From: a virus
IMG/VR virus record: IMGVR_UViG_3300032294_002706
Span: 32,001 to 96,000 of that record
DNA: 64,000 nucleotides
Strand: one strand, 5' to 3'
A program made the position numbers and the translations under genes. Shown here piece after piece: positions 9,658-54,901 of this stretch (within the stretch, counting starts at the first letter, position 1; every line of letters starts with the position of its first letter). The notes beneath the pieces are model-generated. The model saw only the letters and a program-made list of their open reading frames with translations. It did not search any database and was not told the DNA's origin.

Positions 9658-10212
9658 ATGGAAATACTATCATTTGACAAATTTAAGTTATTATTGGAGG
9701 CTGACGAGGCAGCTCCACCAGCTCCGGAGCCGGCAGCTGAACCTACTCCACCTGCTGATCCATCCGCATCAGCTCCACCGCCACCTATGCCGGACCTAGG
9801 AGGATCTCCAATGCCCGACCCTTTAGCTGGTGCAACATTACCTCCTGATCCAAATGCTCCAGCTCCAACCGCTGGAACCTCAGTATTTAAAGTCGTATTT
9901 TTAGACTCTGAAAAACCATGGCACTCTAAGTATGCTGACGGCGGCGGAGTTAAGAGGTATAAAGAATACGAAATCACTCAAGGCGATCTAGATAAATGGA
10001 TTACCGACTCTAAGTTAGAAGCAAATAAAGACGCTCTTTCTCAAGCTGTGAGCGGTAAAAAACCTATCGAGAAAACTCTATTTGATAAATTAAAAGCAGC
10101 AGCAACTTCAAATAAACTTGGTAAGGACCGTGGCGACGTTGATGTAGATTATGATACTAAGCAAATCCCATCAACCTCTAAACTTGACCTAATTTTCATA
10201 ACAACCAAATGA
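9658..10212 (+). CDS. Hypothetical Pro-rich protein with capsid-targeting-like N-terminus (candidate internal head protein)
   Basis: Start moved to ATG 9658, after the terminator and late motif. Begins MEILSFDKFKLLLEADE, followed by a Pro/Ala linker. Confidence 0.65.
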   Translation: MEILSFDKFKLLLEADEAAPPAPEPAAEPTPPADPSASAPPPPMPDLGGSPMPDPLAGATLPPDPNAPAPTAGTSVFKVVFLDSEKPWHSKYADGGGVKRYKEYEITQGDLDKWITDSKLEANKDALSQAVSGKKPIEKTLFDKLKAAATSNKLGKDRGDVDVDYDTKQIPSTSKLDLIFITTK

Positions 10213-10934
10213 TAAAGCGTTTTAAAAACTTCATATATGAATCAAAGTTTGATTCTCTTTCACTTACTATTGCTCATGATCTATTTGCAATCGTGAAAAA
10301 TACTGCAGGTACCAAACCTGGTAAAGCAGTTCATCGGGAACTAACTTATTCGGAGCCTCTAGAGTTTAGTCTAAATTTTATTGTTAAAAGAGTCGTTCAA
10401 TTTAATCCAAGGAAATCTACTCATTTTAAAACTCTACCTTGGGAAGTTTTGAATTTTGAAGATAATGGCTTTGCGCTAGATGCAAATGCATACATTCCAA
10501 AAGTGTCAGATTACGAGGATCCTGAACTCGAATTAGTTCTCTACATTAGCCCAGATGCTGAACCTGTAAGTTATGAGACACTTAGCCATAAACTAGTTGA
10601 ATACGTTAGGCACGAAATCGAACATCTACTTCAAACTGGACTCAACCGTCGAGTTGGCCACATAATTAAAACTCCAAATAAGGTTAGATCAAAGGCGGAA
10701 ACTTCGTATAAGTACTTTTTATTAGCTGACGAAATTCCAGCAATGGTTGCTGGAATGCATGCAGCGGCAGTCAGAAAGAGAATTCCACTAGATCAAGAAT
10801 TCGAAATTTATTTAAAGCCTTTTCTTAAGTCAGGTTTAATAAATGACGAAGAATTCAATAAGGTCATTAAAACCTGGATAAAATTTGCAAATCAGGTTTA
10901 CCCAGATGCTAAATTTTCTAACAAAGTTTATTAA
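10209..10934 (+). CDS. Hypothetical protein with HExxH (zincin-like) motif and capsid-targeting-like N-terminus
   Basis: MIKRFKNFIYES; VRHEIEHLLQ...YFLLADEIPAM. Confidence 0.6.
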   Translation: MIKRFKNFIYESKFDSLSLTIAHDLFAIVKNTAGTKPGKAVHRELTYSEPLEFSLNFIVKRVVQFNPRKSTHFKTLPWEVLNFEDNGFALDANAYIPKVSDYEDPELELVLYISPDAEPVSYETLSHKLVEYVRHEIEHLLQTGLNRRVGHIIKTPNKVRSKAETSYKYFLLADEIPAMVAGMHAAAVRKRIPLDQEFEIYLKPFLKSGLINDEEFNKVIKTWIKFANQVYPDAKFSNKVY

Positions 10935-13768: not shown

Positions 13769-14100
13769 TGAGCATAGACGTTCAACAAGGATTTATTCCA
13801 CTATTCGAAAGACTCTTAATTCTACCGGATAGCGTAGAAGTAAAAACTGAGACCGGCATTCTACTTTCAGTAGATGCACGCAAACGTCCCAATACTGGCA
13901 AAGTCGTTGGCCTAGGTCACCTAGTCGCAGACAACTCAAAATGTCCAGTTAAAGTTGGTGATAGAGTTCTTTACCAAAGATACTCAGGACTTGACGTAAA
14001 ATGGGATAGTCAAAACTATCATCTAGTAATGGCAAACGATCTCTTAGCCATAATCAATAAGGATCAAGAAACACAATTTGAATTAAATGAGCAATCTTAA
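13768..14100 (+). CDS. groES: Co-chaperonin GroES
   Basis: PLFERLLI, KTETGILL, GKVVGLG, VKVGDRVLYQRYSG, DLLAII. Confidence 0.92.
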   Translation: MSIDVQQGFIPLFERLLILPDSVEVKTETGILLSVDARKRPNTGKVVGLGHLVADNSKCPVKVGDRVLYQRYSGLDVKWDSQNYHLVMANDLLAIINKDQETQFELNEQS

Positions 14101-14686
14101 AAGTTTCACGCAATTCGTGAACGAAGAAAAATCAAACGACTTTAGGATCTTTTGTGATCTTGACGGAGTCCTAGTTGATTTTAATAGAGGATTCATTGAG
14201 CTTGCCAGTAATACTGAAAAACTTTCGCCAAAAGCCTATGAAAAGGCTCACGGTAAAGATTCGCTATGGCCGCTAATCGATGAATTGGGAGAATCCTTCT
14301 GGGAAAATCTACAATGGATGAAGGACGGTAGAGAACTATGGGATTATCTTAAGAGATATGATCCAATAATTCTGTCTTCTCCAAGTAAACACCCAGGCTG
14401 TTTTACCGGAAAGGCTAAATGGGTAAAGCTTCATTTAGGAATTGACCAAGATCCAGTAACAGACCCTCAAAATTTTACAAAGGACACCCGATTTATCTTA
14501 GCTAATCGCAAGCACGATTACGTTGAGCCTGCAAAAACTCTATTTAAAAAGAAACCTCTGTTAATCGATGATTTCAATAAAAAACTAGAAAAATGGACTA
14601 ATGCTGGAGGAATTGGAGTTTTACATAACGATTCGACTGATACAATTCGAGTGGTTGAGGAAATTCTAGGCCCAGCTGAAGACTAA
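14087..14686 (+). CDS. HAD-family 5'(3')-deoxyribonucleotidase-like protein
   Basis: IFCDLDGVLVDF, ILSSP, LLIDD, W..AGGIGVLH; N-terminal extension MSNLKSFTQFVNEE. Confidence 0.85.
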   Translation: MSNLKSFTQFVNEEKSNDFRIFCDLDGVLVDFNRGFIELASNTEKLSPKAYEKAHGKDSLWPLIDELGESFWENLQWMKDGRELWDYLKRYDPIILSSPSKHPGCFTGKAKWVKLHLGIDQDPVTDPQNFTKDTRFILANRKHDYVEPAKTLFKKKPLLIDDFNKKLEKWTNAGGIGVLHNDSTDTIRVVEEILGPAED

Positions 14687-30955: not shown

Positions 30956-31116
30956 AATTTTAAATTTTTTTCAGGAGTAAGTTCTTCTACTGAATAAATA
31001 TCTCCTCCTGAACTAAGTTTCATCTTATTCCAGATATCGGTTTCAATTTTCATCAAACGGTTTAAAGTTACTTTACCCGAGGCTTCATTTACAAATTGAG
31101 TAAACTTCTTTATGAT
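30952..31116 (-). pseudogene. Short ORF or gene remnant without ATG, (I)IKKFTQFVNEASGK...
   Basis: 54 open codons starting at ATC. Its TGA overlaps the next ATG (ATGA), and it carries the capsid-targeting-like motif. Confidence 0.5.
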
Positions 31117-31457
31117 TTAGATTTCTCAACCTTTCCTGAATAGATCAATGCATCTTCTGGTTTGTTTTGGTCATTAACCGCGACAATATCAAAATCTCCA
31201 TCCTTATCCGCTTTTGGTGAAATTGCAATGATTGCACCAGCTTTAATGCTAGGATTAGTTGATTTACTCACATTGAACGAAATCATTTCCTTGGTCGTGA
31301 ATTCGCTATCGCTAGTTCCTTCAACTCCAAAAGATTTTCCGTCCGCTGTGATGTTGAGAGTATACGAACCGGGTTTCGCAGCAGTAGTCGGCTCCTCCTG
31401 CTTTGGAGCAGTTGCCAGGTCTTCCTCAGCTAACCATTGTTCAAATAACTTGATCAT
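31110..31457 (-). CDS. Hypothetical protein with capsid-targeting-like N-terminus
   Basis: MIKLFEQWLAEED. Confidence 0.65.
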   Translation of the reverse strand: MIKLFEQWLAEEDLATAPKQEEPTTAAKPGSYTLNITADGKSFGVEGTSDSEFTTKEMISFNVSKSTNPSIKAGAIIAISPKADKDGDFDIVAVNDQNKPEDALIYSGKVEKSKS

Positions 31458-31464
31458 TCTCTAA

Positions 31465-32124
31465 TTATGCGTTTTCGTCTTGGTCTTCGTCGTCTCCGAT
31501 AGCGTTATCGTCGTCGTCTTGGTTTTCGTCTTCATCACTTTCTTCTGTGCAAAGTTTCTTAACTGCTGCACATACTAGATCGCAAATGTCTTCTTTTGTC
31601 ATTTCCATCTTTTCAGCGATATCTTCAATGATGTCTTTAAGATCATCTCCGAACTCTTCCATTAAAGTGGCTAATTGTTCTTCGTCGATTACTGGCTCGT
31701 CAGACGGCATATCGTCATCGTTTGCTGGCATATCGTCGTTTGCTGGCATTTCTTCTTCTGCCTCAGCGAACATGTTAAAATCTTCGTTAACGAATTGTTC
31801 AAAGCGAAGGATTTTTCCTTCTTCAACAGCGTCAACTGTTGCAATTGTTGGTTTTGCGTACATTGGGTTAAATGGTTTTTTCTTTGCCGTTCTTGAAATA
31901 AGGTCACGAGTTACCGCCTTCCATGTTGGGTCATAATTGTGGTTGAATTTTCCACCTTCAAAATCGGCATTTCTGTCAATCACTCGTTGATAGCCTTTCA
32001 GTGTTTCTCTTTTTGATGTATCAAAGTCTTTCTTTGATTTTGGACCTCCGAAACTAGGTTTCTTGGGATTCATGTAATCATCCATCGAAGGATTACGTCT
32101 GTCTTTAGCGTTGAACATGTCCAT
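31465..32124 (-). CDS. Acidic prohead-core-like protein
   Basis: Basic N-terminal half, internal ILRFEQFVNE motif, very acidic C-terminal half with MPANDD repeats. Confidence 0.6.
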   Translation of the reverse strand: MDMFNAKDRRNPSMDDYMNPKKPSFGGPKSKKDFDTSKRETLKGYQRVIDRNADFEGGKFNHNYDPTWKAVTRDLISRTAKKKPFNPMYAKPTIATVDAVEEGKILRFEQFVNEDFNMFAEAEEEMPANDDMPANDDDMPSDEPVIDEEQLATLMEEFGDDLKDIIEDIAEKMEMTKEDICDLVCAAVKKLCTEESDEDENQDDDDNAIGDDEDQDENA

Positions 32125-34207: not shown

Positions 34208-34573
34208 TTACTTAGGCATTTTAGCCATGCTAGGCTCAACTTTCTTGTTGATAGCCTTTCCTTTGATAACTAATTTAGCCATCTTAGGTTCAACTTCTTT
34301 CTTAATTGCACTACCTTTAGTAGTAGGTAACTTAGAAGTCTTTTCGTCAACTGTTTTGTTGATTGATTTACCTTTACGTTTAGGCAGACCAGCCATTTCA
34401 GGTTTAACTGATTTGCTGATTGCTCTACCATTTCCTTTAGGAAGATCTGAAGTTTTAGTGTCTACTGACTTGTTAGACTTAGAACCTTTACCTGTAGGCA
34501 GGTCAGCCATTTGTTGATCAATTGACTTCTTTTCAAGAAGGAATTCGCCGTAGCTTAGAACTGATTTGCTCAT
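34208..34573 (-). CDS. Lys-rich repeat protein, candidate DNA-condensing internal head protein
   Basis: MSKSVLSYGEFLLE followed by five 18-19-aa repeats LPxxKGxxIxKxVxxxxxx. Confidence 0.7.
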   Translation of the reverse strand: MSKSVLSYGEFLLEKKSIDQQMADLPTGKGSKSNKSVDTKTSDLPKGNGRAISKSVKPEMAGLPKRKGKSINKTVDEKTSKLPTTKGSAIKKEVEPKMAKLVIKGKAINKKVEPSMAKMPK

Positions 34574-34692: not shown

Positions 34693-36417
34693 TTAGTAAG
34701 AAGCAGAAGGACGAGTTGAACCAGTCAATACTCCTAGGCCAGTTACTTCCATAGTGATGTATTGAGTTTCAGGATGCCATCCAGCCTCAGTGATTGCATA
34801 ACGAGACTTCATACCAATCTTAGGAGAGAAAGTTCCCTCTGCGATAGTTTGAAGAGACTCAGCCATGATGTAAGGTAAGAATTTAACACCTGGTTCTTCG
34901 TCAGCACCTTTACGTCCGATGTGGATACGGTTATCGCTGAACTTCAAGTTAGGATCTACGTAGATGGTTAAACCATGTACTTTACCTGCAGGATACAATT
35001 GACCTGGAGTAGAAGGTAGATCGTTATTGAATGGAGCGAAAGAGTAACCAGCAACATCAGCAAGAGCAGATGCAACACGACCGTTAGTCACGATGTAAGT
35101 ACCAGCACCAAAACGACCTCTATGATAAATCAAGTTAGCCATTTCAAGAATTTTGGTTACAACACGACGTTGTAGTGTTGAGATGTTCTCGAAACCAGTT
35201 GAACCTACCGTTAGATCAAGGTTACAGATGTTAGCACCTTCAACTGCTTCAAGAGAAGTTTTGTGAGTAGCACCTAAAGTTAATACTCTGTCAACCAATT
35301 TCTTATTGATAGATTGAGCAAGTTCGTTAACCGCTACGTTTTCCAACATAGAGATTACGTCGAAATTCCAAACTCTGTTAAGATCTTGGATTTGCTCAAC
35401 TGTTGCAGAGATAGCAACTTGGTCGCCTCTAGCCTCGATGAACTTAGTGAACATACGAAGACCCATTTGACGGAATTTAGAAACCTCAGCTGTAGCACGA
35501 GTCATTCCACCAAAGTTAGCTTGAGAACCAGTAGATCCTAAGAAAGGACCGTCTACGTCTGTAGCTTCAGTTGAACCTGTACCAGTCCATTCAGTATCAC
35601 TTAATGACGTGAAACCAGAGATGTGGTTTTCAAGAGCTGAAACTAATTCGAATTTCTCAGTTGTTGCGAAAGTGAATAGAGCAGAACCAGTTACTGCATA
35701 AGCACCAGAGCTGATCGCAGAAACCGCTTTAAGAACTGGAGAACCAACCATGTAGTCTTGGATAGCAAAACTAGCCGAGTCAATAGAAGAGATTACTTTG
35801 AAGATAGGAGAACCATCAACACGAGATCTTCCAACGAATTGAATGATCAAGTCATCAGTTCCTGATCCAGTAGCACCATCGATACCGTAGATAGTACCTG
35901 CAGTCATTGCTGAAATCAAACCAGATGATGCACCAGTTAATTTAACTAGGAACGGCTCGTATTGCTTGTCAACGTTACCGCCTTGGTAAACATAATCCAA
36001 ATAAGGTAGGAAACCTACAGGAGAATCCATAGGAACTACACCAACTAGGTCGAAACCAATAGTTTTAGCAGCAACTTGGATAGCTACTGGTAAAAGGCTT
36101 GGAAATTTATCACCAGAACCTGATACAGTTGAACCGTAACCTGCTTTAGTAGCACCACCACCAGTGAACGGAGTCATTGAAGAAGTTGGAGCTGAAATAG
36201 CGCCCATTGCGCTGATTGAACCTGGTTGTTGTAGGAATAATCCTGGAGCAACCGAAGATTCGTTGATAGCACCTGCGTTATCGAAGATAGCATGGTTGTG
36301 AGCTAAGTCAACTAACCAAGGACGAGAATTGATGTCTGCGCCGTAACCTTCTAAAACTGGAGCCCATGTTTCTTTGATTGAAGCGTCATTCAATCTTTTG
36401 AAAATTTTTGTTGCCAT
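34693..36417 (-). CDS. Major capsid protein (gp23-like)
   Basis: ETWAPVLE, FDLVGVVPMDSPVG, FLPYI...TFSPKIGMKSRY; propeptide site INE/S; strongly biased codon usage. Confidence 0.93.
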   Translation of the reverse strand: MATKIFKRLNDASIKETWAPVLEGYGADINSRPWLVDLAHNHAIFDNAGAINESSVAPGLFLQQPGSISAMGAISAPTSSMTPFTGGGATKAGYGSTVSGSGDKFPSLLPVAIQVAAKTIGFDLVGVVPMDSPVGFLPYLDYVYQGGNVDKQYEPFLVKLTGASSGLISAMTAGTIYGIDGATGSGTDDLIIQFVGRSRVDGSPIFKVISSIDSASFAIQDYMVGSPVLKAVSAISSGAYAVTGSALFTFATTEKFELVSALENHISGFTSLSDTEWTGTGSTEATDVDGPFLGSTGSQANFGGMTRATAEVSKFRQMGLRMFTKFIEARGDQVAISATVEQIQDLNRVWNFDVISMLENVAVNELAQSINKKLVDRVLTLGATHKTSLEAVEGANICNLDLTVGSTGFENISTLQRRVVTKILEMANLIYHRGRFGAGTYIVTNGRVASALADVAGYSFAPFNNDLPSTPGQLYPAGKVHGLTIYVDPNLKFSDNRIHIGRKGADEEPGVKFLPYIMAESLQTIAEGTFSPKIGMKSRYAITEAGWHPETQYITMEVTGLGVLTGSTRPSASY

Positions 36418-36436: not shown

Positions 36437-38428
36437 TTAGTTTTGTGCTCTTCTTTGGAGCATTTCAATGTAAGAATTAGAGTAGCCTCTTAGACTTTCA
36501 TTGACTTGTTTTAACGAGACATAACCTTCTTTACCTTGGTTTTCGTTAATTGTTTGATTATTTATATTTGCTTGAGTAGCAATTCTTTCACTAATTCCTC
36601 TAAGATTACGTGAATCCCAGAAAGCTTTAACTTGGTATGGAGTGTTCAACGACATGTTGTTAGCTTGTGCTGAAATCCAATTTTTTTCACTGTCTGTCAT
36701 GCTTTCGTATAGTTCTTTGTATTGAGCAGGCATGAATTTAACGTAGTTAGGAGTGTTTTCAACGTGCTTGTTAAGAACGGCTTCCATGATATTAACTACT
36801 TCGTCTTCTGTGAAGAAGATAGCACCTCTCATTGTCTCAACGATTGCTGTTTTAGACGCTTGATCCAAGTTGTAAAATGCTTGTTTTCTAGCTTCGCTTA
36901 ACAATTTTAAGAAAGGATATTTACCTTCCAATACTGCATTTGCTGTATTTGATTTGATATGTGTTAAGATACCGTCAACTGCATTAACTAAATCATCAAC
37001 TGATGAAGTTTCGGAGATTTCAAAATCAGCGCTTTCGTTTAATTTTTTAACCTCTCCCAATAGAGAACGAGTTTTAGCTGTTGCTCCAGGAATCATTTTT
37101 TCATTTAAAGATTCAGCGATGTAGCTAGAATACTTGATACCTTTATCTAAGTTTTCTCCTAAATAGTTAGAATATTGAATTGTTGCATCAAGATTCTCAG
37201 CTAAATAGTTAGAGAATTTAATTCCGTTCTCTGCGTGTTCTGCAACGTGCTCAGCATATTGAATGCTTAGATCAACGTTCTCAGCTAGGTAGTTTGCGTA
37301 CTCTACTGTTTTTTCAACATTTTCTGCAACGTATTCAGCGTAGTTAGCTGTTTCATTTACTTTTTTACCTAAGTAATCAGAGTAAGCAATGTTCTTTTGA
37401 ACTTTGTCTCCTAAGTAATCAGAGTAGTCAATTACGTTGTTTACTTTTTCTGCAACGTGTTCAGTGTAATTAACACTTTGATTCATCATTGTTGAAAGGT
37501 AGTTAGTATATTCAACTAGGCTTTCCATTTCGCCAGCTAAGTAGTTTACGTACTCAACCATTTTCGAAACTACTGGTGATTCATCAGTTGAAGCGTTTTC
37601 AGAGATCTTTTGAAGACCTTTATTGTTTTTAGAGATGCTCTCTTGTAAAGCTGAGAATTTCTTTTTAACCAATTCGGAGTATTGGTTCATCTCGTCTTTT
37701 GTTACAAACTCATTAGCCATTTGCTGTGTATTATTTTGTTTAGTTGGTGTTTCAGAATTATTTATTTTATAGATTCTCACAGAATCTTCAAAATTGAAGT
37801 TTTCAGAAATATCCGTTAATTTATTGGTAATTGCAGTAGTCTTTAGATTATCTAAAGATTCAAAAATCGCTGAGAAACTGCCTTGTAAGCTTTCAGATAC
37901 CTGAGATAGGGAAGCTTGTGAGAAACCTGGTTCAGCTACCAGATCGTAAGTGAATATCTTGTGTAGTTTAACCTTGCCGTTCTGATCAACATTACCTGCT
38001 GCTCTAGAAGATACTGAGGTTGTACAGCCAGATTCAACCAAGGTCTTTGCGATCTTTCCGCATGGAGTATCAAGAAGGCGTAGTCTAATCTTTACGCTAT
38101 TCGAACTTTCGTCGTATGTAAGATCTTCAATTACGTGAGATACGTTAGCTAAGGAAATATCGAATTTTTGTGGATGATCAAGTTCACCAAAGAGTCTGCG
38201 CTCTTCGATCTTCTTGTTTAAATACTGTAAGTGAGGTAAGTACTCGTTCTTTTCGTATACACGATTGTTTTCGTTTACGACTCCAAAAACGGCAGCAGTA
38301 CCTTCAAGAATAACGTCACCGTTAGTTTCTTTAGTTACAGTAACGGCCTCGTTAATTCTTTCAATGATGAACACTGAATTTTCAGGAATAACCGTTTGGT
38401 TTAGGTTAGCGATTTTAGTATTACTCAA
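36437..38428 (-). CDS. Prohead protease (gp21-like) fused to a scaffold/core domain
   Basis: NENNRVY, GELDHP, LLDTPCGKIA, VSSRAAG and YDLVAEPGF, followed by a long helical repeat region. Confidence 0.9.
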   Translation of the reverse strand: MSNTKIANLNQTVIPENSVFIIERINEAVTVTKETNGDVILEGTAAVFGVVNENNRVYEKNEYLPHLQYLNKKIEERRLFGELDHPQKFDISLANVSHVIEDLTYDESSNSVKIRLRLLDTPCGKIAKTLVESGCTTSVSSRAAGNVDQNGKVKLHKIFTYDLVAEPGFSQASLSQVSESLQGSFSAIFESLDNLKTTAITNKLTDISENFNFEDSVRIYKINNSETPTKQNNTQQMANEFVTKDEMNQYSELVKKKFSALQESISKNNKGLQKISENASTDESPVVSKMVEYVNYLAGEMESLVEYTNYLSTMMNQSVNYTEHVAEKVNNVIDYSDYLGDKVQKNIAYSDYLGKKVNETANYAEYVAENVEKTVEYANYLAENVDLSIQYAEHVAEHAENGIKFSNYLAENLDATIQYSNYLGENLDKGIKYSSYIAESLNEKMIPGATAKTRSLLGEVKKLNESADFEISETSSVDDLVNAVDGILTHIKSNTANAVLEGKYPFLKLLSEARKQAFYNLDQASKTAIVETMRGAIFFTEDEVVNIMEAVLNKHVENTPNYVKFMPAQYKELYESMTDSEKNWISAQANNMSLNTPYQVKAFWDSRNLRGISERIATQANINNQTINENQGKEGYVSLKQVNESLRGYSNSYIEMLQRRAQN
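36559..36566 (-). promoter_or_regulatory. Late promoter TATAAATA inside the scaffold 3' end, upstream of the major capsid gene
   Basis: Exact T4 late consensus about 140 nt before the capsid ATG. Confidence 0.65.
37097..37552 (-). repeat. Eleven 14-aa (42-nt) tandem repeats in the scaffold domain
   Basis: YxxY(L/V)AExxxxxIx units from YVNYLAGEMESLVE to YSSYIAESLNEK. Confidence 0.85.
37759..37766 (-). promoter_or_regulatory. Internal late promoter motif AATAAATA preceding the in-frame ATG at 37720
   Basis: About 40 nt upstream of CAAAATAATACACAGCAA-ATG. Confidence 0.55.
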
Positions 38429-38492: not shown

Positions 38493-39386
38493 TTATTTAT
38501 TAAAGTCGAGTAGCAAGTCTTTTAAAATCTGTAGTTTTTCTTCACTAATTTTTGAAAAATCCGGTTTGGTCACAATTATCTTGAATACGTAATTGCCCCT
38601 ATTGCCGAAGGCTGAAACCAGTCCCTGATTGGGTATTCTGACAGTAATGTCATTAAGGGTGTCCCGATTAAAGGATTTTATTCGATATTTCTTACCTAGC
38701 CGACTCTCTAGTAGAGTCTCTTCATTAAATAGCACATCGTGTAATGACAGTTCAATTCGTTGAACGATATCACTTTGATCAATTGCAAGTTCTAATAGAT
38801 CAATGTTTACTCTAACAATTAGATCTCCGGTTGCTAACATTTTTCTGGCCCTGCCAAAGAAATCAGTTTCATTTATCTCTTGTACGGAACCTCCGCCCCT
38901 AATCTTTAGCAGAATACAGTATCTGCCATTTTCAAAGGTGATAGGATAGCCGTTCTCTGCTAGGTTTACCGATACCTTTACGTTCTTCATTTCGGAGCTT
39001 TTTGAACCTCCTACCTCTTTGGTAATGGAATACTGAACATCAAATGAAGTTCCTTCCATTAATTCTTTAATTGATGCCCATTTATCGACAGTGTGAGTTA
39101 GATTCTTTAGATTAGACCTGTGTCCGCCAAATGAAAAATCCTGAAAACTGTCATAGAAGTTATTATGATGGCCGCGTGGACCACGACTTGCATCGTATGT
39201 CTTACGTTTAGCTGCATTACCTAGAGTTTCGTATGCTTCTGCAATCTCTTTGAACTTATCCTCAGATTCCTTGCTTCCTCCATTTTTGTCAGGATGGTGT
39301 TCGGTCACAAGCTTACGATATGCCTTTTTGATTTCCTCTTGAGAAGCAGTTTCTGCAACTCCTAACGTTTCATAATAATTTTTCAA
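38493..39386 (-). CDS. dnaJ: DnaJ-like co-chaperone (J domain, no zinc finger)
   Basis: [32 protein letters not shown]; C-terminal GDLIV/RGNYV. Confidence 0.9.
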
Positions 39387-39477: not shown

Positions 39478-41514
39478 GTGAAAACAGTATTATTTACCTA
39501 CTATGCCAATCCGGCACAAGACATTTTTCTAGAAAACGTTGAATCACTACTTAAAAATAGTGCATGTGAATATGACGAAATTGTTATTTGTTCTCAGATA
39601 GACGTACCAGTTAAAATAATAAAGGCCTTGTCAAAGCACGCAATAGTAAGCCGAGTTTTTCCGGATCACAATGCACAACAAGCAAAAAGATCATCCAATC
39701 CAAATCGTTCTTATAAAGTCAGCCCATTCATGCTAACTGCTCTATCTTATAAGGAATCGATAGTTACTGTTTTTGATTCTCAGTTATTCGTGATTAGCCC
39801 AATAGCTAATTATTCAGGCAATAATATCTTTTATAAGAACCACCGAGGAGCATTAATCACGCAGCTTTTTACAATCGTTAATACCGAATCAACTGCCAAT
39901 CTATTAATAAAGAGTTTAATTGACTGTGATTTCACAGATGATTCAACTAGCCATAAATTCACATTCATTATCGCAAACGCTGTACCGTTCAATACTGCAA
40001 CTATTTACGACAAGGCGTTCATATTCAGCGATCCTTCCGAGCATGATGTTATAAATGAGGATAAGCTAATTGCGTTTGACCTATCAGAGACAATGACCTC
40101 GTCCATGATACATAAGCAGATGTGGGCCATTCGAAAAACCTACATTCCAAAAGTTTCAACCCTAACTAAAATTGCAAATCATGCAAATTCAATAGTTTCA
40201 ACGGCAGTCGCCGCGATTCAAGAGGTTGAAATGCCATTCACAAAGACCGGCAGTCATGATCCAGTAATATTATTCAAATACACTTCAAGGAGTCGACCTG
40301 ATCAGTTTTATCGAGGTTTGATTAGTATCATCAATAAATGTTCAAGTCCAAACTATTTAATATTGTGTAGTTTCGATCATAACGATCCAGCATTACCTAC
40401 TTATTTAGAATACATCAAGGATTTGAATGATGACCGACTCACAGTCTGTTTAGGAGATAGTAAAAGCAAAATTGACGCAATAAATAGAGATATTAATACA
40501 TACGATAAGCATTGGGATATTGTTGTTAACATGTCAGACGATATGATTTTCACAAAGAATGGATTTGACTTAATAATAAAAAGCGATTTCATTCAATACT
40601 TTCCAAAGTTTGATGGGGTAATGCACTATCCTGATCAAGATGCCGGCGAAAAATTAATGACTCTATCGATACTAGGTAGAAATTATTATCTTCGATTCAA
40701 TTACATATACCATCCAGACTATTCATCTCTATGGTGTGATAACGAAGCAATGGAAGTATCAATAATGCTTGGAAAATATCGATACTCTTCGGTCCGAATG
40801 TTCGATCACATTCACCCAGCATACGGCCATTGTCAAACTGACGAGCAATATAAACACACTGAATCTTTTTACCACGCAGATAATGCGGTGTACTTACAGA
40901 GAAAGGCTAGAGGTTTTAAATTAAAGTTTGCAATATTAATTGCAACAATTGAGACCCGAAAACCTCAGTTTGAAAAACTAAGAAGTTTCTTACAATCTCA
41001 AATAGTTAAAAATTCTCTAGTTGGTCAATGCGAAATAGTCCACATTAGTGATAACAAGGAGATCTCAGTTGGATTAAAAAGACAACGCCTATTGGAAATA
41101 GCCAATAGTAATTACGTTGCATTCATAGACGATGATGATTGGGTTAGCGATGATTACTTACCAATGATCATAAATTCAATAGATTCAAATTCACCAGATT
41201 CAATTGGATTTTTAATTAGATGCACATTTGACAGATCTTCGCCAATCATGGCAAAAGCCTCAAACAAATATGCAGATTGGGCAGAAGACATTGACGGATA
41301 CAAGTACGTTAGAACACCTTATCACAAAACTCCAATCAGGAGAGACCTCGCCATTCAAATAGGATTTAAAGACATTCGATATGCTGAAGATCACGATTAC
41401 AGTCGTAGATTAAAAGCTGCAGGTCTAATAAGAAAAGAAGATTTTATCGACTCTCCTCTCTACTATTATAGTTATGTACATGAGAATCCAAATACAAAAT
41501 ACGGTTTAAAATAA
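39478..41514 (+). CDS. Multi-domain GT-A glycosyltransferase (two GT2-like domains plus a degenerate N-terminal GT-like domain)
   Basis: FKYTSRSRP...VNMSDDM...WCDNE; ILIATIETR...YVAFIDDDD...AEDHDY. Confidence 0.85.
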   Translation: MKTVLFTYYANPAQDIFLENVESLLKNSACEYDEIVICSQIDVPVKIIKALSKHAIVSRVFPDHNAQQAKRSSNPNRSYKVSPFMLTALSYKESIVTVFDSQLFVISPIANYSGNNIFYKNHRGALITQLFTIVNTESTANLLIKSLIDCDFTDDSTSHKFTFIIANAVPFNTATIYDKAFIFSDPSEHDVINEDKLIAFDLSETMTSSMIHKQMWAIRKTYIPKVSTLTKIANHANSIVSTAVAAIQEVEMPFTKTGSHDPVILFKYTSRSRPDQFYRGLISIINKCSSPNYLILCSFDHNDPALPTYLEYIKDLNDDRLTVCLGDSKSKIDAINRDINTYDKHWDIVVNMSDDMIFTKNGFDLIIKSDFIQYFPKFDGVMHYPDQDAGEKLMTLSILGRNYYLRFNYIYHPDYSSLWCDNEAMEVSIMLGKYRYSSVRMFDHIHPAYGHCQTDEQYKHTESFYHADNAVYLQRKARGFKLKFAILIATIETRKPQFEKLRSFLQSQIVKNSLVGQCEIVHISDNKEISVGLKRQRLLEIANSNYVAFIDDDDWVSDDYLPMIINSIDSNSPDSIGFLIRCTFDRSSPIMAKASNKYADWAEDIDGYKYVRTPYHKTPIRRDLAIQIGFKDIRYAEDHDYSRRLKAAGLIRKEDFIDSPLYYYSYVHENPNTKYGLK

Positions 41515-51739: not shown

Positions 51740-52711
51740 TTACCAAAATCCTGGATAAGTTTTACCGCCCCATAGATGAGAGTATCTGTTAATTCTACAT
51801 GCCCAGTAACCAGCTTTCGTTCTATCGTTTTTTAGATGACACTGGTGTCTTGCCGCGAAACTTTTACGAGCTTTAGGATTGCTTACTTTGGCAGTTAATC
51901 CGCCGTGTACGTCTCCGAATGCAATCTTTTTAACTCTCTTTGTTTTTGGATTGATAACGTAGACATAGTACTTCTTGGTTCCACCTCGCATCGGCTTGCC
52001 GATTTCAACCTTCTTTCCATGATACTCTGCTTCGAATAAAAAATCCAATGGAACAATTTCACCTCGATATTCTCCAAATCTTCCAAGATCAGTCTCTTCA
52101 AATAAGATCCGATCTATTCCATTCAGTTCAATCTCTCCCCTATCGTATGCCGTTCTGGCTTCAGCCAGGAGCTCAAAATGGGCTTGACTCGCTGGGCGAT
52201 AAACTGACTCGGCTATTGAGATACCTTCATTGATGTGATATAGTAGACTTTCAGACATTGGGTCAAGATCTGGATTTGGAATTGGAATTTTGTTCCATGA
52301 TCTTTTGGCATTAACTCCTCTTCCTCTAGCCAGCTTAATCTCTTGAGCTTCTTGTTTTAAATACACTAGCGCTTCTTCATAGTCTCCGTTGCTTAACAAT
52401 TCATCGATTTCTTCAGCATTTTCCTTATCTAGTTTTGCCATGTAAACGACCGCATGTCTTTGAGCATTAAATTGACATCTCATTGCCATCATGCCTACTG
52501 TGTGGTTAAATTCCTTTGTAACTGAATCACTATCTTCTTTTGAAATAATTCCCATATCAAGTAATTCAGTAGCAGCTTCCATTTCAACATCGCTCGGAGC
52601 CTTCATGAATGACTCTAGACCCTTACAATCGGCAATGCCGTAATACCATTCAGCTTGTGAATTTCTGAATGATTCATTGAATTTACTAAATGATTTTACG
52701 AGTCTTTGCAT
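51740..52711 (-). CDS. Multi-domain hypothetical protein with capsid-targeting-like N-terminus and basic C-terminal domain
   Basis: MQRLVKSFSKFNES; C-terminal KKIAFGD...ARKSFAARHQC...AGYWAC. Confidence 0.7.
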   Translation of the reverse strand: MQRLVKSFSKFNESFRNSQAEWYYGIADCKGLESFMKAPSDVEMEAATELLDMGIISKEDSDSVTKEFNHTVGMMAMRCQFNAQRHAVVYMAKLDKENAEEIDELLSNGDYEEALVYLKQEAQEIKLARGRGVNAKRSWNKIPIPNPDLDPMSESLLYHINEGISIAESVYRPASQAHFELLAEARTAYDRGEIELNGIDRILFEETDLGRFGEYRGEIVPLDFLFEAEYHGKKVEIGKPMRGGTKKYYVYVINPKTKRVKKIAFGDVHGGLTAKVSNPKARKSFAARHQCHLKNDRTKAGYWACRINRYSHLWGGKTYPGFW

Positions 52712-52716
52712 ATAGA

Positions 52717-53352
52717 TTATTCTTTAGTTAATGTACCACCACACTCACATATATCGCCTTCGTTAATAACAGCAGCTTCATAAGAGATTCCGCACTCATT
52801 ACATGTATATTTACCTTCTGTCATGTACTCTTCATTCTCTGGATTATCAGACAGTCTGTCATTATGCTCAGAACTGTGTTTGCGGTCAAAGTCTTTTCCC
52901 TTAGGACCAAAGTTCTTTAGTCTAGCTAAACTCTCGGCTCTTGCTTTAGGATCATAATCTCCCATAGTTCCTTTTACGTTTGTGTGAGGTGCTGATAAAA
53001 TATCTCTATCATGAATACCTTCTTCAACTTCCTCAGTCATTTCGCCGATTAAAAAATTAGCAACTTCTTCAATATCGTCCTTTGATGTAGCAATATGATC
53101 TACTGCCCAACTGTGTCCATTTTTTAAAATTTGATCTACTTTTCTTGGATCCATTTTTAACATGATCTCAGTCAATCTCTGGATTGTTTCCAAGTTTCCG
53201 AAAAACATATAGTTCTCAGCTTCATGATGATCATCGTGATCTATTTTAGAGGCTGGATGCTGTTGCATATCCGGATTTGGTGCCTGGTGAGGCATCATTT
53301 CGTGTTCTTCTGGCTCATTAAAAAAGCTTTCGAATGTTTTAACAATTCTCAT
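52717..53352 (-). CDS. Hypothetical protein with capsid-targeting-like N-terminus and C-terminal Zn ribbon
   Basis: MRIVKTFESFFNE; CNECG...CECGG. Confidence 0.65.
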   Translation of the reverse strand: MRIVKTFESFFNEPEEHEMMPHQAPNPDMQQHPASKIDHDDHHEAENYMFFGNLETIQRLTEIMLKMDPRKVDQILKNGHSWAVDHIATSKDDIEEVANFLIGEMTEEVEEGIHDRDILSAPHTNVKGTMGDYDPKARAESLARLKNFGPKGKDFDRKHSSEHNDRLSDNPENEEYMTEGKYTCNECGISYEAAVINEGDICECGGTLTKE

Positions 53353-53356
53353 TTTA

Positions 53357-54901
53357 TTATCTGTTATTTTGTTCTTTTATAAAATCTGCGAATCCCAATA
53401 CCAATGAAGATTTCTTCTTTTTCTTTGGAGTGTTACCTCCAAGCGAAACGAATTTATCTCCTGATCCTATCGTATTTTGGGTAGGTGGAGTGATTGGTCC
53501 CATTGAACCAATAGAACCTGGAACTTGTGGAGTTACTCCAGGAGCTGCACCGTCCTCAGTAACCGCTTTAGGTTTGGGTTCGTCAACTACCGATGTGTCT
53601 AGGATAAAGAGTCTAGAGTAAGCATCAGCTTTCATTTCTCCTTCTCTGCCCTTAACTGCTTTACCTACTGCCTTAGCGGTAGTATTCAAAGTTTTAGCGT
53701 ATAGCGTATGTAGGTGTTTACCGGTTTTAGCGAAAGCTTGTCCAGCCGCAGTATTGCCAGTAGTATCTTCACCAAATATGAGACCCATCAAAGCTTGAGA
53801 AGCTTTTCTGAACTTCATTATCTTTGTATCGTCTGCGATCTGCTTTCCTGTAACAGGTAGAGCAGTTCTTTCATATAATGGTAATTTCTTATTGAAATCG
53901 TAATGAATTCCTTTGTATTTCTTTGTTTCAAAATCTTTGCTTTTGGCTCTTTCAATAAGGCTCTTTTGAATGCCGTCAACCATTCTAACTAAATATTCTT
54001 TAGCTTCGTCCGATACGTCCGGAAATCCATTGATACTCACCTTTAGCGCGTTTGCTTCTCGGATGATATCAGACTCATTTGTCCAATTTGTGTACTGAAA
54101 TTGAAAGATTCTTCTAATTATAGATGCTGTGTTCTTGTTAATGAATAGTCCGCTTTTTATGTCAGCTGACGTGCCTGCTCCCAACTTAGAGTCTATTTTA
54201 GTCTCGTATTCTTTGTCGGCTGCTTGGATACCAGCAGTAAGTTCGTCAGACATGTCGTCCGTGATTATCTCAGCTGTGTGAATTGCATCAAATACTTCGC
54301 TTGCGGCTTCTTTCTGAGCTTCCTCAGTTTCAGCCTGTTCAAAATTAGCATAGGCTTGAGTTGCTCTTTTTGCTGGAAGTTTAATCTTTAACGAAAATGC
54401 CTCCGCTAAATCGTCCTGCACCTTTTTAATTTTTTCGTAAATTTCTCCGCTAAAATCAGTTGTGCCTTTACTGTCTAATTTAGCATAAATCTTTTCAAGA
54501 ACATGGATCCTTGCAACAAACGTAAGAATCTTACGACTTATTTCTTCGATTTCAACCTCATTGACTTCCTTTTTAGATAGGGCCTCTTCTAAATTTTTAC
54601 GGAATTCTGCAACTCTCTCGGTCAAGTACATGAAATAACTATCTAAAACCGCTTTCATTTTTGGATTACCGAAGTACTTATCAAAAGCCGGATCGTCCTC
54701 GCCCATTGCAAAAAGAGCGTCCAATAGTCTATTGAGCATTTCGTTAGTATCCTCTTTGCTCTTGCCGTCTTCGCTGCCGGATTTCCGATCCTTGTCCACA
54801 AGATTATCGATCTGACCTCCAATTTGGATGAGGTCAGCTTCTAGAATCAGGCTTTGGATCGCCTGCAGTCTTTTTACTTTTAAAAACATATTAGGCTTCA
54901 A
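53357..54901 (-). CDS. Helical hypothetical protein with a C-terminal segment resembling the major capsid N-arm
   Basis: C-terminal AVTEDGAAPG..PGSIGSMGPITPPT..GSGDKFVSL, then LGFADFIKE. Confidence 0.7.
   Translation of the reverse strand: MKPNMFLKVKRLQAIQSLILEADLIQIGGQIDNLVDKDRKSGSEDGKSKEDTNEMLNRLLDALFAMGEDDPAFDKYFGNPKMKAVLDSYFMYLTERVAEFRKNLEEALSKKEVNEVEIEEISRKILTFVARIHVLEKIYAKLDSKGTTDFSGEIYEKIKKVQDDLAEAFSLKIKLPAKRATQAYANFEQAETEEAQKEAASEVFDAIHTAEIITDDMSDELTAGIQAADKEYETKIDSKLGAGTSADIKSGLFINKNTASIIRRIFQFQYTNWTNESDIIREANALKVSINGFPDVSDEAKEYLVRMVDGIQKSLIERAKSKDFETKKYKGIHYDFNKKLPLYERTALPVTGKQIADDTKIMKFRKASQALMGLIFGEDTTGNTAAGQAFAKTGKHLHTLYAKTLNTTAKAVGKAVKGREGEMKADAYSRLFILDTSVVDEPKPKAVTEDGAAPGVTPQVPGSIGSMGPITPPTQNTIGSGDKFVSLGGNTPKKKKKSSLVLGFADFIKEQNNR

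Follow-up and report, generated by a model that had tools for sequence, protein, structure and literature searches.

The N-terminus of the mature major capsid protein copied at the end of a jumbo-phage protein: a putative prohead cassette of T4-type phages

Introduction

Why would a phage protein that is not a capsid protein end in a copy of the first residues of the mature major capsid protein (MCP) of the same virus? This question is raised by a 514-residue open reading frame (ORF) in a stretch of viral DNA of 64,000 nucleotides, positions 32,001 to 96,000 of IMG/VR record IMGVR_UViG_3300032294_002706, which is referred to here in its whole length as the window. A head-assembly cassette, portable and delimited by protease sites, would make up the last ~65 residues of the 514-residue protein; in it, a hydrophobic-x-Glu site is followed by the first ~55 residues of the mature MCP minus a variable Gly-rich loop, a Lys run and the motif [FY]xxF[IL]xE. 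The virus is a myovirus with T4-type head genes, and a sheath, tube and baseplate hub are encoded.

The cited account of T4 describes propeptides, the capsid targeting sequences (CTS), that bring unrelated proteins into the core and are removed after a Glu, with Alt also being trimmed C-terminally (PMC9026906). The T4-type prohead protease is described there as Glu-specific, and CTS residues 4 and 7 as targeting whereas residues 8 and 10 govern processing (PMC9026906).

A copy of the MCP N-terminus at the end of the 514-residue protein

A preliminary description, made from the sequence alone, had aligned the segment at 53566-53441 (-) with that at 36270-36094 (-). These positions are right and correspond to A446-L487 of the 514-residue ORF and A50-L108 of the MCP. 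The alignment is real, since whole-protein BLASTP gives 37.4 bits (E=9e-7) with 32 of 101 residues identical and one 17-residue gap. Both segments are rich in Gly, Pro and Ser, and the match was compared with composition-preserving shuffles. The Smith-Waterman score is 87 vs. a mean of 29 (standard deviation 5) for shuffled tails, and 0 of 5000 tail shuffles reach it; shuffling the MCP N-terminus (0/5000) or both Gly/Pro/Ser-rich cores (0/5000) does no better. The Gumbel p for the score is 2e-7 to 9e-7. When all six frames of the window and of the 129.7-kb genome record that contains it were scanned, only the tail and the MCP carried the motif. A profile built from 31 tails recovers the MCP among the ORFs of the genome with E=2.5e-8, the next ORF being at 0.086.

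The tail has a fixed order of Glu site, MCP-like stretch, Lys run and T4-CTS-like motif (Table 1). The Glu site (V-T-E449 vs. I-N-E53 of the MCP), the Lys run K493-K497 and the terminal F504-x-x-F507-I-x-E510 are all present as first reported. The MCP-like stretch consists of two motifs separated by 4 residues in the tail vs. a 21-residue Gly-rich loop in the MCP, and the MCP-only residues LFL and MTPF are missing from the copy. Residues F504, F507, I508 and E510 fit CTS positions 4, 7, 8 and 10. On the MCP side, residues 17-26 align with the start of the T4 gp23 propeptide and no Glu lies between E53 and the fold core; together with the Glu specificity of T4-type proteases, this makes E53 the expected maturation site. 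The mixed AAG/AAA codons of the Lys run speak against a poly-A tract or another translational cause, an explanation that was weighed and set aside.

Apart from this tail, the protein does not resemble a capsid protein. A PF07068 scan gives no match in the 514-residue protein, and the likeness is limited to MCP residues 50-108, before the Pfam domain. The AlphaFold2 (AF2) model is all-alpha, with residues 445-505 disordered and a short helix at 505-511. The protein is not an MCP paralogue such as gp24, as it is without PF07068 and its model is all-alpha. Pfam and PHROG scans found no family above the cut-off, a Foldseek search of the PDB with the model gave no match at E<=1e-3, and an ESM Atlas query gave no usable match. 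The true start of the ORF is likely M5 (ATG at 54889) and not the TTG at 54901.

Conservation of the tail

The 514-residue protein has 119 homologues with 31-93% identity to the query (among 8000 candidates scored). Both motifs are found by a strict pattern in 115 of the 119; the other four comprise two truncated records and two with a one-residue insertion. Among the 115, the motifs are C-terminal in 112 and internal in three, which are fused proteins. A Glu lies at most 12 residues before the PG in 115/115, at least four consecutive K/R occur in 109/115, and an aromatic-xx-aromatic pattern comes afterwards in 114/115. F504 is invariant and F507 nearly invariant in the family. The majority fraction is 0.75 for the motif block (residues 453-487) vs. 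0.49 for the body, and residues 330-364 are slightly above the motif block. The latter (53810-53914 (-), KGIHYDFNKKLPLYE.T.LPVTGKQIAD) are the best-conserved 35-residue segment of the family, although their predicted local distance difference test score (pLDDT) is below 50, and they may be a second linear binding motif.

In 20 genomes where tail and MCP could be paired, both share the skeleton xPGxxxQxPGSIxxMGxIxxPT ... GSGDxF. At 17 positions (P, G, Q, P, G, S, I, (M), G, I, P, T, G, S, G, D and F) neither protein varies, or hardly so, and the letters in between are family-specific. In 5 of 5 related records, three of them near complete, there are exactly two matches, namely the tail and the MCP.

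The same arrangement on unrelated carriers

Searching 1.84 billion representative proteins with the 31-tail profile gives 107 matches at E<=1e-3, of which 21 share the body of the 514-residue protein. Among the 86 that do not, 74 have the G-x-G...P...GSGD core. In these 74, a K/R run follows the core in 69 and the aromatic motif then follows in 61, with all three counted features present in 60. Of the 47 records of at least 150 residues, 25 have the cassette at the C-terminus, 12 at the N-terminus and 10 inside the protein, and mini-proteins that consist of the cassette only were also found. The preliminary description had dealt with a single case; the arrangement is a portable cassette on unrelated carriers at C-terminal, internal and N-terminal positions. 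A BLASTP comparison of the 514-residue protein with T4 gp61.1, phT4A gp61.1 and PTm1 ORF-299, three carriers described below, finds nothing at E<=10. A whole-protein profile of the 514 family found no member in LR756500, Lak-A2, LR745206, PTm1 or PAU, and a related-locus search with P0253 found no locus.

Fusions of the 514 family to downstream gene families occur exactly at the cassette, as in P0041 (814 residues), P0062 (793 residues), P0040 (770 residues) and P0031 (534 residues). In P0041 the partner is the family of the 323-residue gene, and the last motif of the tail replaces the leader of that gene. Fusion at the cassette borders suggests a past of gene fusion and fission or a polyprotein-like one. 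A small DUF3008-like domain (..KHEGLPE..) precedes the cassette in several lineages (L097-L103, L114 and P0319, with PF11450 at E=6e-9 in P0319).

Each copy resembles the MCP of its own genome

Distant MCPs retain just the G-M-G...GSGD skeleton, and their other letters are lineage-specific. Second copies were sought in each genome with the tail profile or with the N-terminus of that genome's own MCP, and, PAU apart, only one or two were found per genome (Table 1). The Lak-A2 copy (L106) lies in a reading frame that contains stops under translation table 11 (open frame 58 residues); recoding has reportedly been seen in Lak phages. The phT4A proteins encoded between portal and MCP were also compared with its MCP N-terminus, and all scored within shuffles.

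The copies and MCPs of eight lineages (the window's clade, LR756500, LR745206, Lak-A2, PTm1, phT4A, T4 and G036) were scored against each other in an 8x8 table; a 6x6 version was also made. In 7 of 8 lineages the copy scores highest with its cognate MCP (87, 95, 74, 84, 109, 82 and 111). Non-cognate pairs score at most 91, and at most 53 outside the sister pair T4/phT4A, which is the closest rival. The copy in the window scores 87 against its own MCP vs. at most 39 against the seven others. Out of 40320 permutations, the cognate assignment is the single best. Homology of copy and MCP, conservation, and covariation of the copy with its cognate MCP are observed across the T4 superfamily.

Identical residues are encoded by identical codons at 9/23, 8/17, 9/17, 12/19 and 13/24 positions. 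Since this is only about half the time, the match is kept by selection on the protein and not by a fresh DNA copy. The comparisons support functional mimicry as the source of the likeness, and not chance or dead duplication.

The T4 version is gp61.1, a 54-residue protein annotated as hypothetical. Its order is a CTS, a copy of gp23 residues 66-93 and a charged KKKK/acidic tail. It starts with MKTFKEFIKE, the first seven residues of which equal those of IPI (MKTFKEF) in the T4 record, while EFIxE recurs in IPII and IPIII (MKTYQEFIAE). It aligns without gaps to gp23 56-93, so that the match crosses the E65 cleavage site and takes in 28 residues from the start of gp23*. The Smith-Waterman score of this pair is 82, which 0 of 3000 shuffles reach, vs. 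just 25-32 for T4 gp24, gp67 and gp68 against gp61.1. Among all PDB sequences the top match of gp61.1 is gp23 (E=0.0067), and none of the PDB chains is gp61.1 itself. A larger gp61.1 homologue occurs in 667 phage records. The literature on gp61.1 gave only two incidental mentions and nothing on function. As a separate observation, the CTS pattern is also matched by AFGSFLTE, with which the gp23 propeptide ends.

Proposed role of the cassette and alternative explanations

The reading favored here, given a probability of roughly one half, is that the tail is a prohead cassette that engages whatever is engaged by the flexible N-terminal segment of the MCP. The targeting motif and the basic run would carry the protein into the prohead core, like the CTS of T4 internal proteins, and the partner of the MCP-like stretch would be the one that the N-terminal segment of the MCP itself engages. 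If T4 is a guide, this partner would be the scaffold/protease core for as long as the segment lies within the prohead. The S77/S80 protease would then cut after the equivalent Glu, freeing the 449-residue helical body inside the head and leaving a ~60-residue peptide that starts like the mature MCP. Targeting, partner engagement, cleavage and packaging are all proposed from the T4 precedent. The location of one carrier, PTm1 ORF-299, between the portal and the protease/scaffold genes fits a head role. Covariation with the MCP indicates a lineage-specific partner, and the scaffold/protease core, the MCP shell and the protease all qualify.

The preliminary description had proposed mimicry in which the peptide occupies a groove for the capsid N-arm on the inner shell, perhaps at the vertices or the portal. 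The mimicry itself holds up, through the fixed skeleton of the 20 paired genomes and the tracking of the cognate MCP in 7 of 8 lineages. The groove fares less well. The structural accounts cited describe gp23* residues 66-105 as flexible and unresolved inside the cleaved, unexpanded prohead, where they are thought to contact the scaffolding core, and as finally forming the N-arm and N-fist on the outer surface (PMC9546572, PMC9958956). From these accounts, a partner in the scaffold core is at least as likely as a groove in the shell. Structure prediction is of limited help here. The AF2 model of the MCP (mean pLDDT 56, residues 45-147 below 50) is too poor to place the N-terminal segment, and predictions of the complex of two copies of MCP 109-574 with tail residues 450-514, run without controls, scored 0.23 and 0.00 (mark 0.32) and weigh neither way on binding.

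Several findings weigh against the prohead cassette. Within the clade of the window, covariation of the motifs is absent (18.35 vs. 18.32 of 31 positions, reached by 4825 of 10000 permutations), and the linker signal is weak (2.05 vs. 1.58; 137/20000, which is not a clean p-value as the genomes are related). Covariation within the clade was therefore rejected as evidence, the motif letters being without a cognate effect, and the between-lineage test was relied on. The spacing between the motifs is 4 in the tail vs. 16-22 in the MCP and is equal only in genome G018. Among the other lineages, the G036 copy is a bare GMG...GSGD skeleton with a score of 32, and PAU, searched with its own MCP N-terminus, gave no second copy. 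Gene location is not consistently that of a head gene: the 514-residue gene is separated from that of the MCP by ~17 kb and from that of the portal by ~18 kb, and T4 gene 61.1 is in the primase/dmd gene block and not with the head genes. The presence of carriers in proheads or virions and their cut at the Glu are deduced from sequence. Finally, the 84-residue ORF of LR745206 (L116) and T4 gp61.1 are the cassette and nothing else, so an address label for cargo cannot be the whole story and the peptide, once released, probably does something itself.

Such cassette-only proteins lead to an explanation, an extension of that in the preliminary description, in which the peptide acts in the capsid lattice. 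After cleavage it would replace the N-arm/N-fist of the MCP where this is missing, at the portal or at the gp24 vertices of T4, or would time expansion by competition. The copy begins at the same distance after the Glu as the N-terminus of the mature MCP, and cleavage would therefore yield an MCP-like free N-terminus; gp61.1 and L116 are essentially only such a peptide. An MCP partner would suit the covariation, and the number of copies per genome, only one or two, also counts in its favor. In the T4 structure as cited, the N-fist touches four subunits, and gp24* forms an N-arm and no N-fist (PMC9958956). This explanation is nevertheless unlikely. The T4 segment ends on the outer surface in the accounts cited, which is awkward for an internal peptide with a charged tail (PMC9546572, PMC9958956), the spacing between the motifs is not kept in the clade of the window, and gp61.1 is not a chain in any solved T4 capsid entry. 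In 3 of 3 near-complete relatives the Gp23 family has one gene and a gp24-like vertex paralogue is absent, so that only the portal vertex would lack arms in this clade. In its widest form, offered tentatively and with considerable doubt, T4-superfamily phages from T4 to huge phages of 0.5-0.6 Mb would each make one or two proteins from which a free copy of the N-terminal "fist" of the MCP is released as a working head part; on the same doubtful footing, the fist would complete the lattice (at the portal, and in T4 at the gp24 vertices) or time expansion, and would anchor or position the 514-residue protein.

The shared stretch might also serve the prohead protease, as a docking or exosite element or as a regulatory pseudo-substrate, with the MCP and the carrier being alike because one enzyme recognizes and cuts both. 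In each case examined the copy comes after a Glu site, the T4 alignment passes through the E65 site itself, and few sequence determinants of gp21 cleavage are known according to the cited account (PMC9026906). Coevolution with a lineage-specific protease would also produce the covariation. This is rather improbable, as the best-kept residues lie 5-50 positions downstream of the Glu while the linker next to it is variable, and other predicted substrates with CTS-type leaders are without the stretch. That the copy is a cytoplasmic decoy for a host defence sensor that reads the MCP N-terminus is very improbable. T4 61.1 is among the early genes, adjoining dmd and sp, and the copy tracks the MCP as a decoy would; against this, the copy comes together with a CTS-type motif, a protease site and a basic run (60/74 core-bearing matches outside the 514 family), PTm1 ORF-299 lies between portal and protease, the gene in the window sits among genes with CTS-type leaders, and no defence system is known to recognize the segment. 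Least credible of all is that two stretches rich in Gly, Pro and Ser are alike by chance, or that the copy was left behind, without a function, when part of the MCP gene was duplicated. Both segments are of low complexity and LFL and MTPF are uncopied, yet it is contradicted by the shuffles (0/5000), by conservation of the copy in 115/119 homologues down to 31% identity, and by its recurrence in seven further lineages with lineage-specific letters in the cross-lineage table.

Genome setting and head genes

The 129.7-kb record is about half of a ~270-kb genome, and relatives of 253-270 kb are 93-100% complete. The T4-type portal gene is outside the window. The MCP of the window is nearest to the MCPs of uncultured huge phages and Lak phages (31-38% identity). 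Upstream of the MCP gene, the protease gene encodes a protease domain at residues ~25-270, followed by ~390 residues with "NYL/EYV..AE.V" repeats that look like a built-in scaffold. Directly upstream of these two genes is that of a DnaJ-domain protein (38493-39386 (-); PF00226, E=3e-26), which may be a phage co-chaperone for head assembly. A 678-residue protein with glycosyltransferase family 2 domains (39478-41514 (+)) is encoded beside the head genes, on the other strand. The gene immediately following that of the MCP, 34208-34573 (-), encodes a basic protein of 121 residues with a CTS-like leader and ~4 tandem repeats of ~20 residues (LP.GKG....K.V.....).

A T4-CTS-like leader, [FYW]xx[FYW][ILVMF]xE within the first 16 residues, is present in 7 of 120 genes of the genome vs. 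1.15 expected, which suggests a set of head-packaged proteins. The product of one of them resembles a HAD-type phosphatase (DLDGVLVDF). The coordinates of the cassette and related features are collected in Table 1.

Table 1. Positions of the cassette, its template, related genes of the window and second copies in other phages.
Feature	Position	Strand	Basis or remark
514-residue ORF bearing the cassette	53357-54901	(-)	open reading frame
All-alpha body, residues 5-430	53612-54889	(-)	AF2 model, mean pLDDT 69, helices up to residue 430
V447-T448-E449, predicted prohead-protease site (hydrophobic-x-Glu)	53555-53563	(-)	aligned to MCP I51-N52-E53; putative cleavage
Motif 1, A453-T474 (APGVTPQVPGSIGSMGPITPPT)	53480-53545	(-)	copy of MCP A57-T78
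Motif 2, G479-L487 (GSGDKFVSL)	53441-53467	(-)	copy of MCP G100-L108 (GSGDKFPSL)
Lys run K493-K497	53411-53425	(-)	mixed AAG/AAA codons
L500-E510, amphipathic F-A-D-F-I-K-E, T4 CTS type	53372-53404	(-)	predicted helix 505-511
MCP, Gp23 family, 574 residues	34693-36417	(-)	PF07068 E=4.8e-41; sequence match to T4 gp23 structures
MCP I51-N52-E53, predicted maturation site	36259-36267	(-)	last Glu before fold core; putative cleavage
MCP residues 54-108, template of the copy	36094-36258	(-)	first stretch of predicted mature MCP; corresponds to N-fist plus N-arm start in T4
Prohead protease (S77/S80) with fused repeat-rich scaffold-like C-terminal part	36437-38428	(-)	candidate partner and cutter
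211-residue gene, next after the 514-residue ORF	52717-53352	(-)	starts with the same leader type (MRIVKTFESFFNE)
323-residue gene	51740-52711	(-)	related leader LVKSFSKFNES; fused to 514 family in P0041
CTS-like-leader genes in the window	10209-10934, 14087-14686	(+)	
CTS-like-leader genes in the window	31110-31457, 34208-34573, 52717-53352	(-)	
CTS-like-leader genes of G000 outside the window	98041-98814, 119985-120764	(-)	
T4 second copy: gp61.1, NP_049649.1, 54 residues, "hypothetical"	NC_000866.4 18966-19130; locus L120 3967-4131	(-)	
phT4A second copy: "gp61.1", 162 residues			110-residue N-terminal part, L-E site, copy of MCP 60-100, RAGKRKKK
PTm1 second copy: ORF-299	between portal and protease/scaffold genes		ParB-like DGHHK-motif body, by eye
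Lak-A2 second copy: one, L106	MK250019.1 168990-169124		
LR756500 second copy: 140-residue ORF			
LR745206 second copies: 177-residue ORF and 84-residue ORF			

Relation to known systems

The T4 CTS of IPI, IPII, IPIII and Alt have the form [FY]xxF[IL]xE and end in Glu, and F504-A-D-F-I-K-E510 of the tail and the leaders of the neighboring genes fit it. The T4 CTS are described as N-terminal and 10-19 residues long, whereas the tail motif is at residues 500-510 of 514 (those of the neighboring genes being N-terminal). The tail motif also follows a ~35-55-residue copy of the mature MCP and a Lys run, and a copy of this kind is not described for the internal proteins. The cassette would thus work like a CTS or cargo-loading peptide, and also in the manner of the CpmB mimicry of a scaffold described below, without belonging to the strict CTS class, given its position and the additional MCP-like part.

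The gp61.1 family shares the Glu site, the copy of the cognate mature MCP, the basic run and the CTS-type motif, a likeness of design and not of descent. There is no sequence homology to the 514-residue protein, and in T4 gp61.1 the CTS precedes the copy. In phage 80alpha and its pirate SaPI1, the scaffold and CpmB are described as having the same terminal helix-and-hook peptide, which binds one site that includes the N-arm of the MCP (PMC5644958). There the pirate copies a peptide of the scaffold (PMC5644958), whereas here the same phage copies the N-terminus of its own MCP. Cargo-loading peptides of encapsulins are described as flexible, rich in Gly/Ala/Pro, C-terminal or interdomain in unrelated cargo proteins, and as binding the lumen of an HK97-fold shell (bioRxiv 10.64898/2026.07.21.739788). 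They are not copies of a shell arm, are not cut off, and are without a Lys run or CTS. Encapsulins are an analogy only, as the shell is that of a tailed phage, of the Gp23 type, and comes with genes for a portal, a protease and a tail. The template of the copy corresponds to the N-fist/N-arm of T4 gp23*, the residues that come first once the maturation cut has been made. In the MCP this segment is tethered to the HK97 fold, whereas carriers have the basic run and no capsid fold.

The preliminary description knew of no earlier account of such an arrangement, and literature searches likewise gave no published description. What is new is the element that is copied (the N-terminus of the mature MCP), the way it covaries with the MCP, and an occurrence that reaches from T4 to huge phages.

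Significance

The choice and placement of minor internal proteins in large T4-type heads are poorly understood, as are the contacts of the flexible N-terminal segment of the MCP before expansion. A copy that is matched to the MCP throughout the T4 superfamily marks this segment as a specific binding element and provides a ready probe for its partner. Because T4 has a 54-residue version in gp61.1, the idea is directly testable in T4. A second copy of the MCP N-terminus can serve as a search rule for head-internal proteins in uncultured huge phages. If the cassette loads proteins, it would add a second handle, one matched to the capsid, by which foreign proteins could be packaged into phage heads.

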